A stretch of DNA of 32,000 bases, from assembly GCF_000020025.1 (NCBI RefSeq), contig NC_010628.1, forward strand, positions 5,040,001 to 5,072,000. Direction: 5' to 3'. Each line of letters opens with the position of its first letter. Position 1 is the stretch's first letter. The notes beneath the pieces were generated by a model that was not told where the DNA came from, made no database searches, and was given only the letters and a program-made list of their open reading frames with translations. The DNA comes from Nostoc punctiforme PCC 73102. Lineage in GTDB: Bacteria > Cyanobacteriota > Cyanobacteriia > Cyanobacteriales > Nostocaceae. The translations under genes and the position numbers were made by a program. Below, one piece after another: positions 7,272-14,336 of this stretch.

Positions 7272-7291
7272 AAAAAAAGCGTAAAGTACGC
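7272..7291 (-). terminator. Possible intrinsic terminator closing the SUKH/deaminase/Imm1 cassette
   Basis: The minus strand reads GCGTA-CTT-TACGC followed by TTTTTTT, 37 nt after the Imm1-like stop. The stem is short (5 bp), so confidence is moderate. Confidence 0.4.
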
Positions 7292-7327: not shown

Positions 7328-7741
7328 TCAAACTCGCTCCAAAATTTCATCTTTTTCCCAATTCACTGATTCTTCCATTGTCCCAAGCTCTGCGAAAGCT
7401 TTAGCAGCTTTAAGAGTTGCATCCAAGTCAACACAGGATTTAGCAGGATAAACACCTTCTTGACCCCCAACTATCACGAATTCATTCATATCTGATTTAG
7501 AGGGGTCAACAAGATAATGAAAACTCTCATTATCAAATGTCAAATACACTATATATTTTCCTAAACCACCACCCACAGCCATGTGAGTTTCACTATCTGT
7601 TTCTAAAGTTACAAGTGTTTTGTGATGCCCGTCTAACTCTCTAATAGCTGATTCTATTTCTTGCCAACTGTGCGCTTGCTCGACACAACCCTTATTTTGA
7701 TTACCCATCCAATCTTCAACTGAAAATTTTGTGATGAACAT
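7328..7741 (-). CDS. Imm1-like immunity protein (polymorphic-toxin system immunity family)
   Basis: The 137-aa acidic alpha+beta-looking protein ends with a Trp-containing C-terminus (SVNWEKDEILERV). Its ATG lies 8 nt after the stop of the deaminase-like ORF, with GAGG overlapping that stop. The family assignment comes from remembered family features, not from a search. Confidence 0.55.
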   Translation of the reverse strand: MFITKFSVEDWMGNQNKGCVEQAHSWQEIESAIRELDGHHKTLVTLETDSETHMAVGGGLGKYIVYLTFDNESFHYLVDPSKSDMNEFVIVGGQEGVYPAKSCVDLDATLKAAKAFAELGTMEESVNWEKDEILERV

Positions 7742-7749
7742 AATTAACC

Positions 7750-8176
7750 TCAGATCAGTGTAATTGTCTGACGATCGCTAGGGCTAATAACTTCTATTTC
7801 TTCTATACCAAGCTGTCTAGCCATTCCTTTCACACCTCCGTTTTGACCACACGCCCTACAAAGATCCCGGTCAACTGTTAAACGCGCTTTCCCTCCTCTT
7901 AATCCTGCATCAAAGGCTTGTTGAAAGGCATCAGCTTCAGCGTGTGTGCGACTAATTGGATTTACTTTAAGTGTAATCTTTCTGCGATTGGGATTACTGC
8001 CTGCACTGATACCAAAAAATACACTACCACTTATTTCTAACTTTGCGATTGTAGAACGGTCGTCTTCACTACCTGCTGGAGTCAGGCCAAGCTGTTGCCT
8101 ATACTCTGCTAATTCTTCAAAAATAAGCTTATATCTCCATTGTTTAATACGACTTACCCAATCACTAAGTTTTCAT
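7750..8176 (-). pseudogene. Deaminase-fold toxin-domain ORF (HAE...CxxC), lacking an in-frame start; an ATG at 8176 is 1 nt out of frame across an A4 run
   Basis: My own translation of the minus strand 8172->7750 gives KLSDWVSRIKQWRYKLIFEELAEYRQQLGLTPAGSEDDRSTIAKLEISGSVFFGISAGSNPNRRKITLKVNPISRTHAEADAFQQAFDAGLRGGKARLTVDRDLCRACGQNGGVKGMARQLGIEEIEVISPSDRQTITLI*. THAE plus C-R-A-C is the zinc-binding signature of cytidine-deaminase-fold enzymes. This ORF is not in the supplied track. The 7946..8197 plus-strand ORF is its antisense shadow. Confidence 0.55.
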
Positions 8177-8198
8177 CTATTACAATGTGACTCCTAGC

Positions 8199-8702
8199 CT
8201 AGATTTCCTCCACATCAATCAAACTTTGGTGAGGCGAGAAATGAAAAGGAGGTTGTAAGGAAACATAACGATTAATGTACCAGTGGCAAAGGTCTTTAAA
8301 AGACTCAAAAGTATAAATTTCTTCGTTTCCATGAGGCAAGATAAATAGGCGATTTCGATTAGAGGAATGAAACAAAATATCATCTCCACTGTAGCTATCA
8401 AAACAGGGAATACATTCAACAGCAAGTGTTTGTGTTAAAGACTCAGAGTTATCTTGCCAAAACCAGTACATAGCTAGTCTTTCACGGACTTCACTTAGCA
8501 AATTCTCTAAAATGTCGTGTGGAGAAAACACCCGCAGAGGTAAATCTAGAAATGTGCCAGACCCAAAAGTTGTAATAAATGTACGATAGTCTTCTGGAAA
8601 TAAAACTTGTAATTTTTCCTCAACTAGTAAAAGTTCTTGTGTAGAAACAGGGTATAGTGGCTCCTGAGCGACAATGAATGAAATTCCCTGAAATTCAAGC
8701 AT
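8199..8702 (-). CDS. SMI1/KNR4 (SUKH-1) family immunity-type protein
   Basis: The LFPEDYRTFITTFGSG motif and overall length are typical of SUKH-1 proteins. The ATG at 8702 (MLEFQG...) is preferred, because the track start at 8765 is a TTG. Confidence 0.65.
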   Translation of the reverse strand: MLEFQGISFIVAQEPLYPVSTQELLLVEEKLQVLFPEDYRTFITTFGSGTFLDLPLRVFSPHDILENLLSEVRERLAMYWFWQDNSESLTQTLAVECIPCFDSYSGDDILFHSSNRNRLFILPHGNEEIYTFESFKDLCHWYINRYVSLQPPFHFSPHQSLIDVEEI

Positions 8703-8842
8703 AGAATTGTTGTTTAAAAATTGGTCGTACTGAAAATATACATTAACACTAAGCTTTGAACTCAAAATATTTCAGATAAGTTGATAGTATTGGTGGAATT
8801 TGTCGAGAATTACAAATAATTCTGCCGTTGTTGGAGTAAATT

Positions 8843-9973
8843 ATGAATGCTGCTTGTTTAACTATTAAAGAACTTACCGATGCAGTAGGCGGCGGTTTAA
8901 CTCCGCGGATGGTGCGCCATTATCATCAATTGGGACTTTTACCGCAACCAGTGCGATCGCACAGCAATTACCGTCTCTATACCAAAACAGATGTTCTCAG
9001 GCTGCAACGGATTGTAGCACTGAAGCAGCAGGGGTTTCAGCTAAACCATATCCGCAATATTTTGGACGTGGAACCAGAAGCTGACACAACTGTTAACCTC
9101 ATGGGACAACTTCAGCAGCAATATCGCGCGGTGATGCAACAAATCTCTCAACTGCGGCAAACTGCATCAGCATTAGAAGGATTATTGGGGCGCGATCGCC
9201 ATTGTCAAATTATCCAGGCGGAAGTTTTGGCACAACTCAAGTTACTTGATGTCGAAACCCAAGCCGGATTGGGGGGATTGGAAAATCTCTGGAGTGGCTT
9301 GGATGCCGAAATTCATAGCCACTCAGAAGCTTTTTCCGAATCGCTACAACGCTTACTACCAGATTTATCTCACCGTTCGGAAATTGAACAACACTTAATT
9401 TCTCAGTTGGTTTTGGCTTGTGGCGATGTCAGTTTAATATCCTTTGTGAAATTGAGCCGAGATGCGATCGCAGCTAGCCGAGAAGCCTTATCTTCAAGCT
9501 GTCAAATCGTTGTTGATACCCAAACCGTTGCGGCTGCTTTAGATCAAACCCGATTACTTCACTTGGGATGCCGCACTGAAACCTTAATTGATAATCCCCA
9601 CATTACCACCGCCACAGAAGCAGAAGCAGCTTTTTGGCAACATCGAGAATGGCGATCAAAATTGCTGCAAGTAAATCACGGTTGCGTGCTGGTAGTTGGT
9701 TATGCTCCCTCAGTCCTTGTAGAAGTTTGTGAAGCGATTAGCAATCAAAAAATTCAGCCAGCGTTAGTAATTGGAATGCCCATTGGCTTTAGTCATGCTC
9801 CCGCAGCCAAGCGACAACTGATGCAACAAGGGATACCTTTTATTACAGTTGCAGGAACTTTGGGAGGTGGCGCTTTAGCTGCTACTGCCCTAAATGCTTT
9901 GGTGGAGTCCCTGATTGATAAGCCAGATTGTCATTGTTATCTCAAAAATATAGTAGATTCCTCTGAGTGCTGA
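8843..9973 (+). CDS. coaR: CoaR-like MerR-family metal-responsive regulator with C-terminal precorrin-isomerase (CbiC/CobH)-like domain
   Basis: The N-terminal MerR HTH reads LTIKELTDAVGGGLTPRMVRHYHQLGLLPQPVRSHSNYRLYTKTDVLRLQRI. The C-terminal half resembles CbiC (VVGYAPSVL...ALVIGMPIGFSHAPAAKRQL...IPFITVAGTLGGGALAATALNALVE). A Cys-His-Cys lies near the C-terminus (KPDCHCY), as described for Synechocystis CoaR. Confidence 0.8.
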   Translation: MNAACLTIKELTDAVGGGLTPRMVRHYHQLGLLPQPVRSHSNYRLYTKTDVLRLQRIVALKQQGFQLNHIRNILDVEPEADTTVNLMGQLQQQYRAVMQQISQLRQTASALEGLLGRDRHCQIIQAEVLAQLKLLDVETQAGLGGLENLWSGLDAEIHSHSEAFSESLQRLLPDLSHRSEIEQHLISQLVLACGDVSLISFVKLSRDAIAASREALSSSCQIVVDTQTVAAALDQTRLLHLGCRTETLIDNPHITTATEAEAAFWQHREWRSKLLQVNHGCVLVVGYAPSVLVEVCEAISNQKIQPALVIGMPIGFSHAPAAKRQLMQQGIPFITVAGTLGGGALAATALNALVESLIDKPDCHCYLKNIVDSSEC

Positions 9974-10352: not shown

Positions 10353-13300
10353 ATGTGGCAACAAGAAAAAAAAGATACTTCGATAATCAGGCTGATACTA
10401 TGGGTTGCTTTAGCTACAACTCCTATGGCAGCAGGTTTGCTGGTATCAGAACCGATACTGGCGCAATCTAAACCTACGTCTCCTTCTTTTACACTGCCGC
10501 AAACAGTGCAGAATGGAACGACAATTCGGATTGATGGTTCAAATAGTTTGGGTACAATCAACCAAAGCCTGAAAGAGAATTTTGAAAAACAGTTTTCGGG
10601 TACTAAGGTTGAAGTCGCCGCTAATGGCACTGATACAGCACTGAAAGATTTGCTAGATGGCAAAATCGACATCGTAGCAATGGGGCGTGGGTTGACACCA
10701 GCAGAAAAAGCTCAAGGACTAGAGCAAGTCCGCTTGCGCCGTGAGAAGATTGCGATCGTGGTCAGCGCAGATAATCCTTTCAAAGGAAGCTTGACTAGTA
10801 GGCAATTTGCCCGGATTTTCCGGGGACAAATTACAAATTGGTCACAACTAGGAGCGCCATCAGGGAAAATTCGGTTAATTGACCACCCGAACACAAGTGA
10901 GACTCGCAATACTTTTCGCACTTATCCAGCCTTCAAGACTGCTGAATTTGCTACAGGGTCTAGTGCTACCCAACTAACTGAGGATAATACCGCAGAAATC
11001 ATCAAGCAACTGGGCAAAGATGGCATCAGCTATGTGTTAGCTAATCAGGTGTCGAAGCTGCAAAATGTGCGAGTTCTGCAATTACATCAAGCCTTGCCAG
11101 ATGATGCAAAATATCCCTTCTCGCAACCTTTAGTTTACGTTTACAAAAAAAATCCCAGCTTAAGCGTAGTAGATTTTCTTGGCTTTACCCTGGCACCCGC
11201 AGGACAGCAGGCTATAGAACAAGCAAGAACGGCTGAAGCAACTGCGATCGCAACCAACGTATCACAACCTATTGTCACGCCTTCCCCTAGTCCCCAGACA
11301 ACACCTGCTGCTACAGCTTCCCCTAGTGCTACTGCTTCTGCATTTGGCGAACAGCCTTTTGTCGCTCCTGCCAATACACAAAAAAGTCCAATTGTCAACA
11401 AAGAAGTACCGTTTTGGGTACTGCTACCTTTGTTTCTTGTTAGTGTAATTGCAGCGTTGGCCTGGTGGACTCTCGGAAAAAACCCATCATCTGATGAGAA
11501 AACAGACAACTTACCAGAATCCAATCCTCATCCACCCGATCCAGAAGATGGAGAAACAGCAGTACTTAATGCCAGCACAGCTGCCTCCATTAACGGAGCG
11601 ATGCTTGAAGAACAGCCAGTTTCACAATTCCAAGAGCAAGAAACCCGCGATCGCACTCCTTTCAATATCTATGCTCAAACACAATCTGACCTGGCTGAAA
11701 ATGGTACTCACGGGACATCCAATTTAGTACAAGAGGCAAGTAATGGAACTTCTAACCTCTATGAAGGTACAACCTCCACTCTAACTAATGGATCGGGAGC
11801 CGCAGCTTTAACTGGTGGTGCGGCTTTAGCAACGGGCATCGGAGCGGCTACCTGGTCTGCCTTTAACAACAAAGAAACAGAAACAAACGCAATTGATGAG
11901 ACGGTCGAGTTAAATAATTATACTGAGACAAATACACCCGATTCTGATGAGGTTGCATGGGATATAGAAGCCCCAGCCGCTGTAGTAAACACCCCATATC
12001 CTCACTTGGGAAATCTTTCCGAAGAAATATCTTCTGATGTAGAACTGCCTTCATCTGAGTTAACAGCCCCACTGCCAAAATTACCAGATGTGCCAGAAGT
12101 AACATCTGATTTGGGATATTGGGACACAGAAATTTCTGAAGATGAGATAGATGAGGAACTTCAAGCAGAATTAAACTGGCTACAGAGTATTACCTCAACT
12201 GAAGATACAGCAGATGCAGCTTCAGCAGATGAATTGCCCTTACCAGACTCTGACGAAGTAGAACCTTCACCGTCACCAACATCTTCACTACTCAATTTGC
12301 CAGAATTACCAGATGTAGATGTATTCAATGTGGTAGCGGATGCAGCCGAACCTCCTATTGAGGTGGTAAACGAAGAATCTCAAACAGAGCCAACTGTTGG
12401 GGAAGGTGCTGCTGAGAATGACTCCATAGATTTTGCAGGCGTTGCGGCTTTAGCAGCAGGTGCAGGGATTGGAGCCTGGGCGATTAATCTGGGATCGGAT
12501 ACTCAAGGAGAAACTGATACTGCGATTGACAATGTGCCAATTGCAGCCGAAACAGATATCCATTTGGCAGATGCAGAAGATGAGAGCAGTATTTTGCTCA
12601 CACCGCATACTTCGACATCAGCTCATGTCTCTTGGGAAATTTCTGAAACCAAGAAAGCAGAACTGTGGCAACAAGGCGGCTCTCAATTGGTAGTGCGACT
12701 GTATGATGTGACTGGCATAGACTTGAGTTATCAAACTCCCCAGCTTGTCCAGCAGTATGAATGTACAGAGACAGCACACGATCGCTTGGTAGAGATTCCC
12801 GCCAACGATCGCGACTACATAGCTGAAATTGGTTATATCGCTTATGGCGAGTACTGGTTATTCATAGCCCGTTCCGCAATTCTTCGTGTCTTCAGTCCTG
12901 TGAATCCAGATCCCATAGTTGATCGTGTGGCGAACACAGCCGAAACAAGTATTGGTTTGGTAGATGCAGATGAAGAAAGCAGTATTGTCCTTACACCACA
13001 TACTTCGACATCGGCTCATGTCTCTTGGGAAGTTTCCGAAACCAAGAAAGCAGCACTGCGTCAACAGGGCGGCTCTCAATTTCAATTTATAGTGCGGCTG
13101 TATGATGTGACTGGGATTGACTTGAGCTATCAAAGTCCTCAGCTTGTCAAGCAGTATGAATCTGAAGAGACAGTAAACGACGGACTAGCGGATGTTCCCG
13201 CCAGCGATCGCGATTATATAGCTGAAATTGGTTATCTCGCTGATGGCGAACGCTGGTTATTCATCGCCCGTTCAGCAGTTGTTCATTTCTCCAGTTCTGT

Positions 13301-14336
13301 ACATCCAGATCCCGTCGTTGATGATGTGGCGATTGCGGATGAACCAGATATTCACTTGGTAGATGTTGAAGAAGAGAGTAGTCTTGTCCTTACACCTCGC
13401 ACTTCCCAATGGGCTGATGTTTCTTGGGAGATATCCGAAGCCAAGAAAGCAGAACTGCAACAACAGGGCGGCTCTAAATTGGTAGTGCGGTTATATGATG
13501 CAACTGGGATTGACTTGAGTTATCAACATCCTCAGTTTGTCCAACAATATGAATGTGAAGAGACTGCAAACGATCGCTTTGTAGAAATTCCCATCAGCGA
13601 TCGCGATTACATAGCTGAAATTGGCTATGTCGCTGATGGCGATTGCTGGTTATTTATTGCCCGTTCTGCGATCGCTCGTGTTTTCAGTCCTGTTCCTACA
13701 GATTCCACCGTTGAAAATGGAGCCTTACCAAGCGAAACAGCTATTAACTTGGTAGACGTAGAAGAAAAGAGCAGTGAAGAAGAAAGCAACATACTGCTCA
13801 CACCCCGCACTCCCAAATGGGCTTATGTCTCTTGGCACATTTCCCAGACTCAGAACAAAGCGCTGCTACAACAGGGCGGTTCTCAATTGGTAGTGCGCCT
13901 TTACGATGTAACTGGGATTGACTTGAGTTATCAAAGTCCCCAGCTTGTACAGCAGTATGAATGCGAAGAAGTAGCCCGCGATCGCTTTGTGGCGATTCCC
14001 GTAAGCGATCGCGACTATATGGTTGAAATTGGTTACATAGCAGAAGGCGATCGTTGGTTACTCATCGCCCGTTCACCTAATGTTCGCGTTTTCAGCCGTT
14101 CCCACGAAGATTTTTGGTTTGTAGCAGATGCTGAGTTAATTATTCACGGAGCAACCCAACCAAATACAAGCGTAAACATTGCTGGACATCCTATCAAAAT
14201 CAAACCCGATGGTACTTTCCACCTGCGTCTTCCCTTTTCAGATGGTTTAATGGACTATCTCATAACAGTAGCTGCTGATGGAGAATCCACCAAAACCATC
14301 CATAAAAAGTTCTCTCAGGAAACTTCAGAGAACTAG
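10353..14336 (+). CDS. Large multidomain protein: signal peptide + PstS-like (PBP type 2) phosphate-binding domain + TM helix + long acidic region + 4 tandem DUF4912-like modules
   Basis: The N-terminus is MWQQEKKDTSIIRLILWVALATTPMAAGLLVSEPILAQS. PstS-family motifs are present (IRIDGSNSLGTINQSL, DIVAMGRGLTPAEK, GQITNWSQLG). A P/T/S/A linker leads to the TM segment VPFWVLLPLFLVSVIAALAWWTLG. Four modules of about 131-133 aa follow, each with the pattern LLTPxTxxxAxVSWEISE...VVRLYDVTGIDLSYQ...DRDYIAEIGY...WLFIARS. Confidence 0.85.
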   Translation: MWQQEKKDTSIIRLILWVALATTPMAAGLLVSEPILAQSKPTSPSFTLPQTVQNGTTIRIDGSNSLGTINQSLKENFEKQFSGTKVEVAANGTDTALKDLLDGKIDIVAMGRGLTPAEKAQGLEQVRLRREKIAIVVSADNPFKGSLTSRQFARIFRGQITNWSQLGAPSGKIRLIDHPNTSETRNTFRTYPAFKTAEFATGSSATQLTEDNTAEIIKQLGKDGISYVLANQVSKLQNVRVLQLHQALPDDAKYPFSQPLVYVYKKNPSLSVVDFLGFTLAPAGQQAIEQARTAEATAIATNVSQPIVTPSPSPQTTPAATASPSATASAFGEQPFVAPANTQKSPIVNKEVPFWVLLPLFLVSVIAALAWWTLGKNPSSDEKTDNLPESNPHPPDPEDGETAVLNASTAASINGAMLEEQPVSQFQEQETRDRTPFNIYAQTQSDLAENGTHGTSNLVQEASNGTSNLYEGTTSTLTNGSGAAALTGGAALATGIGAATWSAFNNKETETNAIDETVELNNYTETNTPDSDEVAWDIEAPAAVVNTPYPHLGNLSEEISSDVELPSSELTAPLPKLPDVPEVTSDLGYWDTEISEDEIDEELQAELNWLQSITSTEDTADAASADELPLPDSDEVEPSPSPTSSLLNLPELPDVDVFNVVADAAEPPIEVVNEESQTEPTVGEGAAENDSIDFAGVAALAAGAGIGAWAINLGSDTQGETDTAIDNVPIAAETDIHLADAEDESSILLTPHTSTSAHVSWEISETKKAELWQQGGSQLVVRLYDVTGIDLSYQTPQLVQQYECTETAHDRLVEIPANDRDYIAEIGYIAYGEYWLFIARSAILRVFSPVNPDPIVDRVANTAETSIGLVDADEESSIVLTPHTSTSAHVSWEVSETKKAALRQQGGSQFQFIVRLYDVTGIDLSYQSPQLVKQYESEETVNDGLADVPASDRDYIAEIGYLADGERWLFIARSAVVHFSSSVHPDPVVDDVAIADEPDIHLVDVEEESSLVLTPRTSQWADVSWEISEAKKAELQQQGGSKLVVRLYDATGIDLSYQHPQFVQQYECEETANDRFVEIPISDRDYIAEIGYVADGDCWLFIARSAIARVFSPVPTDSTVENGALPSETAINLVDVEEKSSEEESNILLTPRTPKWAYVSWHISQTQNKALLQQGGSQLVVRLYDVTGIDLSYQSPQLVQQYECEEVARDRFVAIPVSDRDYMVEIGYIAEGDRWLLIARSPNVRVFSRSHEDFWFVADAELIIHGATQPNTSVNIAGHPIKIKPDGTFHLRLPFSDGLMDYLITVAADGESTKTIHKKFSQETSEN
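12528..14105 (+). repeat. Four in-frame tandem repeats, period 393-399 bp, inside the 1327-aa CDS
   Basis: Unit starts are about 12528, 12921, 13320 and 13713. Long runs are nucleotide-identical between units, for example CATACTTCGACATC[A/G]GCTCATGTCTCTTGGGAA in units 1 and 2, and GA(T/C)CGCGA(C/T)TA(C/T)AT(A/G)G(C/T)TGAAATTGG(T/C)TA in all four units. Confidence 0.9.

Follow-up and report, generated by a model that had tools for sequence, protein, structure and literature searches.

A putative AUU-initiated toxin-type deaminase gene paired with an Imm1 immunity gene in Nostoc punctiforme PCC 73102

The minus strand of a 32,000-nucleotide (nt) stretch of the Nostoc punctiforme PCC 73102 genome (NC_010628.1, positions 5,040,001 to 5,072,000; hereafter the window, whose numbering is used throughout) carries a deaminase frame that lacks an ATG, GTG or TTG start. 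The frame is part of a small islet with the minus-strand order SUKH, deaminase, Imm1, located between genes for a MerR-CbiC fusion and a P-type ATPase. Comparison with related loci makes it probable that the islet encodes a 124-amino-acid (aa) deaminase toxin, initiated at low dose from an AUU codon, together with its Imm1 immunity partner; the toxin gene is not frameshifted. Genes of this kind are known, and RefSeq already contains this one; the new and modest element is a comparative case for AUU initiation and for weak start codons across the family.

The startless frame and its conservation

The frame opens behind an in-frame TGA (8175-8173), runs through 140 sense codons (8172 to 7753) and closes at TGA 7752-7750, with a translation ending in ...SRTHAEADAFQQ...DRDLCRACGQNGG...ITLI*. 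The initial annotation had described a 141-codon open frame from 8172 to 7750, which corresponds to the 140 sense codons plus TGA and has the same translation. Direct reading also confirmed its remark that ATG, GTG and TTG are absent near the 5' end. The earliest in-frame codon of this type is a GTG located 27 codons from the stop, and for this reason the frame does not appear in the mechanical list of open reading frames (ORFs). The description of the gene as missed by ORF detection therefore holds for finders limited to ATG, GTG and TTG and fails for RefSeq, which contains WP_202947569.1 (124 aa). Judged by its database homologues and a Pfam match above the gathering score, the 140-codon frame is no chance open stretch. 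The 16 extra codons upstream of the conserved part have no counterpart among the homologues, either in the database search or in an alignment of 38 sequences. A stop-free run of this length has a chance probability of about 0.4 at the stop-triplet frequency of the minus strand, and the 16 codons are read here as a chance extension.

The best supported coding sequence (7750-8124, minus strand) comprises 124 codons plus TGA from ATT 8124-8122 and predicts the product (M)FEELAEYRQQ...ITLI. The ATT, proposed as a non-canonical initiation codon, stands one codon ahead of the F in FEELAEYRQ. Between the stop of the SUKH gene and this codon lies a leader (8125-8198, minus strand). It contains a mini-frame, ATG AAA ACT TAG (8176-8165), one base off the deaminase frame, with an A-run at 8173-8170, and an AGGAG (8195-8191) 14 nt ahead of ATG 8176. 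This arrangement, including the ATG frame that stops after three codons, reads exactly as first described.

Startless copies were compared by locus, WIN denoting the copy of N. punctiforme PCC 73102 and L-numbers the compared loci. They fall into three junction classes: A (WIN, L004, L045, L049), B (L008, L048) and C (L009, L047). Synonymous and non-synonymous differences were counted only between genomes with the same junction, and hence post-date the loss of the start; they were evaluated against neutrality by a one-sided binomial test. As the WIN-L004 pair alone is a thin basis (11-14 differences), further lineages were added for each junction. Synonymous to non-synonymous counts within class A were 7:4 for WIN-L004 (P = 0.004), 11:2 for L004-L045 (P = 4e-6) and 9:5 for L045-L049 (P = 0.001). 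The class B pair L008-L048 yielded 6.5:6.5 (P = 0.015) and the class C pair L009-L047 12:2 (P = 1e-6). Of the variable codons among the four class A sequences, 12 differ only synonymously and 6 alter the residue, one of the latter at a hypervariable loop position. None of the eight startless loci measured has a stop or an indel in the deaminase frame. Amino-acid identity between WIN and L004 is 96% for the deaminase, 92% for Imm1 and 90% for SUKH. These comparisons indicate that in all three junction classes the 124-codon frame has been under purifying selection since it lost its canonical start. In the WIN-L004 pair the synonymous divergence (dS) of the deaminase (7753-8124), about 0.09, is under half of that of Imm1 (7331-7741; 0.25) and SUKH (8202-8750; 0.20), a possible sign of more recent exchange of the segment or of an RNA constraint.

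Conservation extends a short distance ahead of the frame. The 23 nt TTAAACAATGGAGATATAAGCTT (8147-8125) are identical in the four class A lineages, and the sequence upstream of them diverges or is interrupted. This block ends at the in-frame ATT 8124-8122 and includes a Shine-Dalgarno-like GGAG (8135-8138, minus strand) 10 nt upstream of it. In classes B and C the junction with the core reads (A)GCTT ATT, and GGGGGGAG and GAGGG or CAGGG lie upstream at distances similar to that of GGAG. In-frame stops precede the ATT in both classes, a TGA two codons upstream in class C and a TAA six codons upstream in class B, which leaves ATT 8124-8122 as the one near-cognate start that classes A, B and C share. 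The junctions of all three classes with their unrelated upstream DNA coincide within a few bases, at (A)AGCTT ATT, a HindIII-type palindrome (8125-8130; L008, L009, L047, L048); this may mark a recombination hot spot or the survival only of junctions that kept the ATT.

The same start is found in public annotation. RefSeq WP_202947569.1, "deaminase [Nostoc punctiforme]", has exactly the predicted 124-aa sequence, the ATT being rendered as M. NCBI entries of the same length that open with MFEEL are also available from ChiSLP02/DedSLP01, DedQUE12a, Aulosira ZfuVER01, Calothrix FACHB-156 and ChiSLP03a. In L043 (NCBI assembly GCA_034531235.1) the called gene likewise begins at this ATT. Initiation at AUU is on record in Escherichia coli at about 1-2% of AUG, with infC and pcnB as the only confirmed users (bioRxiv 10.1101/063800).

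Alternative readings of the 5' end

The initial annotation had sought the start at ATG 8176. On re-reading it is correct that one A fewer in the A-run would place this ATG in frame and give MKLSDWVSR..., and the gene had been regarded as inactivated by a one-base homopolymer insertion, as affected by a sequencing or assembly error, or as read by slippage (+1, on A AAA A). An error could appeal only to the general error-proneness of homopolymers, for which four A are a short run. Three separately assembled public runs (SRR8435164, SRR16479527, SRR8435156) carry the identical AAAA (...ATAGATGAAAACTTAGTGATTGG...) and orthologues in other species have the same length, which reduces this explanation to a negligible probability. 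Insertion or slippage draws some support from the retention of ATG-A[A/G]A-ACT-TAG in three lineages. The MerR-CbiC/ATPase site is common to L004, L043-L046 and L049 only, all other copies being located elsewhere. At this site Nostoc spp. DedSLP01 and ChiSLP02 (L004, L043, L044) have ATGAGAACTTAG, in which AGAA replaces AAAA at the same length, and Nostoc sp. DSM 114161 (L045, L046) has ATGAAAACTTAG with the same run length. The comparison of orthologues for three versus four A thus returned AGAA or AAAA, and AAA was never found among the same-site orthologues (at least three further lineages). AGAA is not slippery and leaves the frame relation unchanged. The leader alignment contains a 2-nt indel before the ATG and, in L045, a 1-nt deletion after it, owing to which an in-frame TGA lies between the ATG and the conserved core. 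In L049 (GCA_051860325.1) a repeat-bearing insertion of about 245 nt separates the ATG from the core, and the SUKH gene has been lost for the most part. Because of these indels, the TGA and the insertion, the leader 8125-8198 is read as non-coding, with no part played by the ATG/A4 feature. Classes B and C have entirely different upstream DNA joined to the deaminase core and keep the ORF without the ATG, and the 16 N-terminal codons that this start would add are unmatched in homologues. The AGGAG is 14 nt off, and its sequence and spacing vary between orthologues. Known +1 frameshift sites such as that of prfB have an in-frame stop adjacent to the slippery run; here the stop is two codons away, AAAA is AGAA in L004 and L043, and the leader is broken in orthologues. 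Initiation at ATG 8176, whether followed by an inactivating insertion or by slippage, is on these grounds highly improbable.

The principal competitor of AUU initiation is an untranslated orphan cassette, that is, a displaced toxin tip which lost its N-terminal part together with its start by recombination and persists as the silent 5' part of the Imm1 transcript. Only Imm1 would then be functional, in protection against attackers with the same toxin. Startless C-terminal toxin cassettes beside kept immunity genes are recognised in polymorphic toxin loci (in part PMC3482391), and an orphan SUKH immunity gene adjoins the N. punctiforme deaminase. Logan and JGI records call no gene over the stretch. 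At other loci the deaminase has truly decayed while Imm1 is intact, through a stop in L005 and frameshifts in L025, L032 and L033; according to these sequences both fates, decay and preservation, occur in the family. An untranslated tip is hard to reconcile with mostly synonymous changes and the lack of stops and indels in three independent junction classes, with a deaminase that has diverged no more than Imm1 or SUKH between WIN and L004, and with 23 invariant nt ahead of the ATT while the remaining leader decays. Nor is there a homologous upstream recombination arm, the upstream DNA being wholly different between the classes. We consider the orphan cassette possible, at clearly lower probability than a translated gene. 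A translated gene could also begin at the in-frame ATT 8148-8146 (8146..8148, minus strand), with a predicted 132-aa product MKQWRYKLIFEEL... (MKQWRYKLIF...). This is the form of the NCBI protein P0136/WP_445638658.1 of Nostoc sp. DSM 114161 (132 aa, MKQWRYKLIF), which maps to this codon, and ATT AAA CAA TGG AGA TAT AAG CTT is kept in WIN, L004 and L045. The insertion in L049 separates the codon from the frame while the ORF remains intact, classes B and C lack the codon, and no Shine-Dalgarno-like motif stands ahead of it, unlike the second ATT with its GGAG. Initiation there is therefore rated unlikely. The start models can be told apart by their predicted N-terminal peptides, (M)FEELAEYR, MKQWR/YKLIFEELAEYR and MKLSDWVSR.

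Several points weigh against translation of a toxin from ATT 8124-8122. Two class A pairs, WIN-L045 (4:4, P = 0.09) and WIN-L049 (5:6, P = 0.08), are not significant alone; the selection tests draw on only 8-14 differences per pair, and transition bias does not enter the binomial test. Selection could also be mimicked by gene conversion if these genomes have an intact paralogue at another site. The NCBI call of ATT is a pipeline decision, as is evident from the DSM 114161 protein, for which the upstream ATT was used instead; being inconsistent, it provides no evidence of initiation. ATT starts are very rare in bacteria, and translation from this AUU is inferred from sequence comparison. No secretion or trafficking domain and no linked secretion apparatus were found at the locus, and the product of 124 aa has no N-terminal domain. 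Against the defence-system models of PADLOC-DB v2, neither the three islet proteins (deaminase, Imm1 and SUKH) nor a 235-aa form of related cyanobacteria had a match, and the three proteins had none in NCBIfam either.

Two further routes into the deaminase frame were rejected. Readthrough of the TGA from upstream would meet another in-frame stop 8 codons further up. Reinitiation past the mini-frame would have to use a GTG or TTG, both of which lie outside the deaminase frame, and orthologues have GCG in place of the GTG. The insertion in L049 (L049:3750-4045, equivalent to about position 8146) has a 5-nt overlap, TTAAA, at its ends, CTTGCGA-type short tandem repeats and a GC-rich hairpin (GGGCACAGCATTGCTGTGCCC). 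It resembles a miniature mobile element, and an IS605 OrfB/TnpB gene follows Imm1 in that genome.

Deaminase fold, immunity partner and relatives

The deaminase frame matches Pfam MafB19-deam (PF14437) with 36.7 bits (cut-off 27). A database search returned 332 homologues with 74-89% identity, nearly all of them cyanobacterial where the source is named. In the alignment of 38 homologues H77, E79, C105 and C108 (H-A-E and C-R-A-C) and R102 are invariant, and every full-length locus copy retains the HAE and CxxC residues. H-A-E (CAC GCT GAA, 7936-7944, minus strand), where a helix begins (model helix 78-88), comprises the catalytic zinc ligand and the proton-shuttle Glu. C-R-A-C (TGT AGG GCG TGT, 7849-7860, minus strand), in RDLCRAC after model strand 95-100, provides two more zinc ligands. 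An AlphaFold2 model built from the same alignment is confident, with a predicted local distance difference test score (pLDDT) of 87.5 and a predicted template-modelling score (pTM) of 0.82. It has the deaminase topology beta-beta-alpha(HAE)-beta-alpha(CxxC)-beta-beta, with strands (E) and helices (H) at E42-47, E50-55, H78-88, E95-100, H112-120, E125-129 and E134-138. All 50 Foldseek matches listed from the PDB are deaminase-fold enzymes, among them human and mouse cytidine deaminase, plant DYW, DddA, DddB, blasticidin-S deaminase and APOBEC3; the best was 1mq0 (E = 4.6e-4), and E-values are modest, with template-modelling (TM) scores of 0.4-0.5. A PDB sequence search with the deaminase family profile gave chance matches only (E > 0.09). 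The zinc-dependent cytidine-deaminase fold that had been proposed from HAE and CxxC is hence upheld jointly by Pfam, the structure model, Foldseek and residue invariance, and the proposal passed both sequence-based checks that had been named with it. The product is a compact toxin-type protein of this fold with intact catalytic residues.

Assignment to a clade is looser. Of the MafB19 signature sensu Iyer, HxE is present, V100 (RLTV100) is nearly invariant, and R102-D-L-C-R-A-C corresponds to basic-xxCxxC. The two other signature residues, N at the end of strand 2 and G at the beginning of strand 4, are ambiguous: N. punctiforme has FFGIS, versus FFGIN in most family members, and G122 ahead of strand 4, versus D or N in most relatives. 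The Pfam profile PF14437 also matches a RibD protein and differs from the profile of Iyer (bioRxiv 10.1101/2023.06.29.547047). The gene is therefore classed, from its sequence, as a toxin-type deaminase of a MafB19-like group rather than as a proven member of the clade. DNA deamination has been reported for other MafB19-labelled enzymes, none of them from the present subfamily.

Directly downstream lies the immunity gene (7328-7741, minus strand; 137 aa), which matches Pfam Imm1 (PF14430) with E = 1.7e-18 and begins with an ATG 8 nt past the deaminase stop (TGAGGTTAATTATG). Of the 38 loci tested, 3 from Logan assemblies and 35 from species representatives, 31 have an Imm1 match behind that of the deaminase, and most of the others are fragments or contig ends. 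The pairing spans Nostoc, Pseudanabaena, Chamaesiphon, Phormidesmis, Tumidithrix and others, and the gap between the genes is 7-8 nt in the eight startless loci measured. The ratio of non-synonymous to synonymous substitution rates (dN/dS) of the Imm1 gene is 0.07-0.23. A PDB sequence search with Imm1 found nothing.

HMMER, run exhaustively over 1.84 billion representatives, identified 404 relatives with the deaminase domain, which nearly always forms the very C-terminal end of proteins of up to 3330 aa. RHS repeats were present in five of seven relatives scanned (333-3330 aa), some of which have DUF6531, TcdB_toxin_midN, FG-GAP or RCC1 upstream. As relatives place the domain at the C-terminus behind RHS repeats, it is identified by sequence as a polymorphic-toxin (Rhs-tip) deaminase, of which the cyanobacterial genes are free-standing versions. 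Together with the adjoining Imm1 gene, this position at the tip of RHS proteins agrees with the earlier classification as a compact bacterial toxin-type domain. The deaminase copies at the compared loci are mostly free-standing genes of 126-127 codons. Identity within the subfamily is 68-80% across cyanobacterial orders, and dN/dS is 0.03-0.26 over all pairs and 0.03-0.13 between Nostoc and other orders, a degree of conservation that is unusual for a polymorphic toxin.

A Nostocales clade has a form of 235 aa with an extra N-terminal domain of 100 aa, and other lineages have different N-terminal extensions. The 100-aa extension has no Pfam match. It is conserved among the 235-aa forms (L007, L011, L012, L013, L039) as MPLxLHNFEWEGERLVQRETEPHH...GNPGIWTYVVYSCP (P0001 residues 1-100). 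Other extended forms are P0114 (237 aa) and L016, with an open frame of 376 codons; the variable part is the N-terminus rather than the toxin. Descent of the N. punctiforme leader (8177-8133) from the linker of the 235-aa form received no significant support in a global alignment, shuffled sequences reaching at least the observed score with a frequency of 0.076. In Calothrix sp. NIES-2098 (L039:9338-10162) an intact pair of a 235-aa deaminase and Imm1 stands beside Unstab_antitox and Macro-domain genes, a conflict-type setting.

Possible role, known systems and genomic surroundings

The Nostoc copy has lost the N-terminal extension of its closest relatives, the 235-aa forms, and with it any ATG, GTG or TTG start. 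SUKH, deaminase and Imm1 are presumed to be co-transcribed. Weak translation from AUU 8124 behind the conserved GGAG would yield MFEELAEYRQ... (124 aa), and Imm1 would be made from its own GAGG and ATG, 8 nt past the toxin stop. The weak start would keep toxin output under the level of Imm1, which is expected to bind and block the toxin; the latter, in turn, would deaminate cytosine in DNA or RNA. Two features suggest that the toxin acts inside the cell in a toxin-antitoxin-like role, namely the missing delivery domain and an unusually strong conservation of the pair from one cyanobacterial order to another.

Among the stand-alone relatives, six of seven start at TTG, which makes weak starts typical of the family; their TTG or ATG stands 2-3 codons ahead of the position matching ATT 8124. 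Tentatively, weak starts may represent a built-in dose control across the cyanobacterial free-standing deaminase/Imm1 family, the copies that lost their N-terminal extension in three independent events having survived under purifying selection only where an in-frame AUU with a G-rich element ahead of it was kept.

Similar to the MafB19-like deaminase toxins (Iyer, Zhang, Rogozin and Aravind 2011, PMC3239186; PF14437), the N. punctiforme protein has the HxE helix, the basic-xxCxxC motif, the strand-3 V and a C-terminal beta-hairpin, together with Rhs-tip relatives and an immunity gene directly after the toxin gene. In contrast to them it is, like most cyanobacterial copies, free-standing and without a trafficking domain. 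Its partner also differs, being Imm1, whereas SUFU and SUKH were reported as immunity partners for the MafB19 clade and Imm1 for the SCP1.201 clade (PMC3239186). Toxins of the DddA/DddB/SsdA type have the same compact fold of about 120-130 aa and cognate immunity proteins, and are represented among the Foldseek matches by 6u08, 8e5d and 9k3e. Nonetheless, identity with the N. punctiforme deaminase is only 13-15%, the TM score is about 0.43, and no PDB match was found at sequence level. DddA, moreover, is delivered by a type VI system within a large protein, unlike the free-standing 124-aa deaminase. Orphan rhs-CT/rhsI and cdiA-CT/cdiI cassettes resemble the locus in a toxin tip without delivery part or canonical start, an intact immunity gene and an extra stray immunity gene. 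The N. punctiforme locus differs from them in the absent upstream homology arm, the purifying selection in three contexts and the ribosome-binding-site-like block before the ATT. The E. coli genes infC and pcnB are comparable in their in-frame AUU, upstream Shine-Dalgarno-like element, conserved frame without a canonical start and a setting that favours low or regulated output. The N. punctiforme gene differs from them in that its AUU start is putative and its host is a cyanobacterium.

For annotation, the locus is an example of a real gene that escapes finders limited to ATG, GTG and TTG and is rescued by the NCBI pipeline through a rare start. The apparent frameshift was a red herring and cautions against "repairing" homopolymers without comparison of orthologues. 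If AUU initiation is true, the gene would be a further natural example of it with comparatively good support, and on the dose-control reading one of very few natural bacterial genes selected to begin at AUU. Weak starts (TTG, ATT) would hold the toxin below its immunity protein, and a domain otherwise found on Rhs toxins would have an intracellular (toxin-antitoxin-like or defence) rather than a secreted role. As compact, highly conserved deaminases of about 124 aa that are distant from DddA and SsdA, the members of the family are candidates for base-editing or sequencing-enzyme screens.

The SUKH gene upstream of the leader (8199-8702, minus strand, with its ATG at 8702) encodes an SMI1/KNR4 (SUKH-1) immunity-type protein of 167 aa (Pfam SMI1_KNR4, 31.1 bits) that is identical to ACC82398.1/WP_012410365.1 of N. 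punctiforme. No toxin gene stands ahead of it. Its homologues number only 4 in 5.8 billion proteins (the others with 58%, 52% and 44% identity), which marks it as a rare orphan immunity gene. A terminator-like hairpin with a T-run follows Imm1 (7279-7291, minus strand). It derives from a consensus scan in which terminator-like matches were no commoner than in shuffled sequence, and was not used as evidence. Promoter-like matches, also by consensus only and likewise set aside, numbered 10 against a shuffle mean of 4.7 (standard deviation 2.3), about two standard deviations above it.

The wider neighbours include RpiB and an efflux pump. Divergent from the islet, the plus strand encodes the fusion of a MerR-type DNA-binding domain with CbiC (precorrin-8X methylmutase; 8843-9973, 376 aa). 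Further along the same strand, 10353-14336 encodes a protein of 1327 aa that carries PBP_like_2 at its N-terminus and, behind it, four long and nearly identical repeats of a DUF4912-type module (...LTPHTSTSAHVSWEISETKKAEL...RLYDVTGIDLSYQ...). The number of these repeats appears to vary among orthologues, which range from 1136 to 1327 aa.

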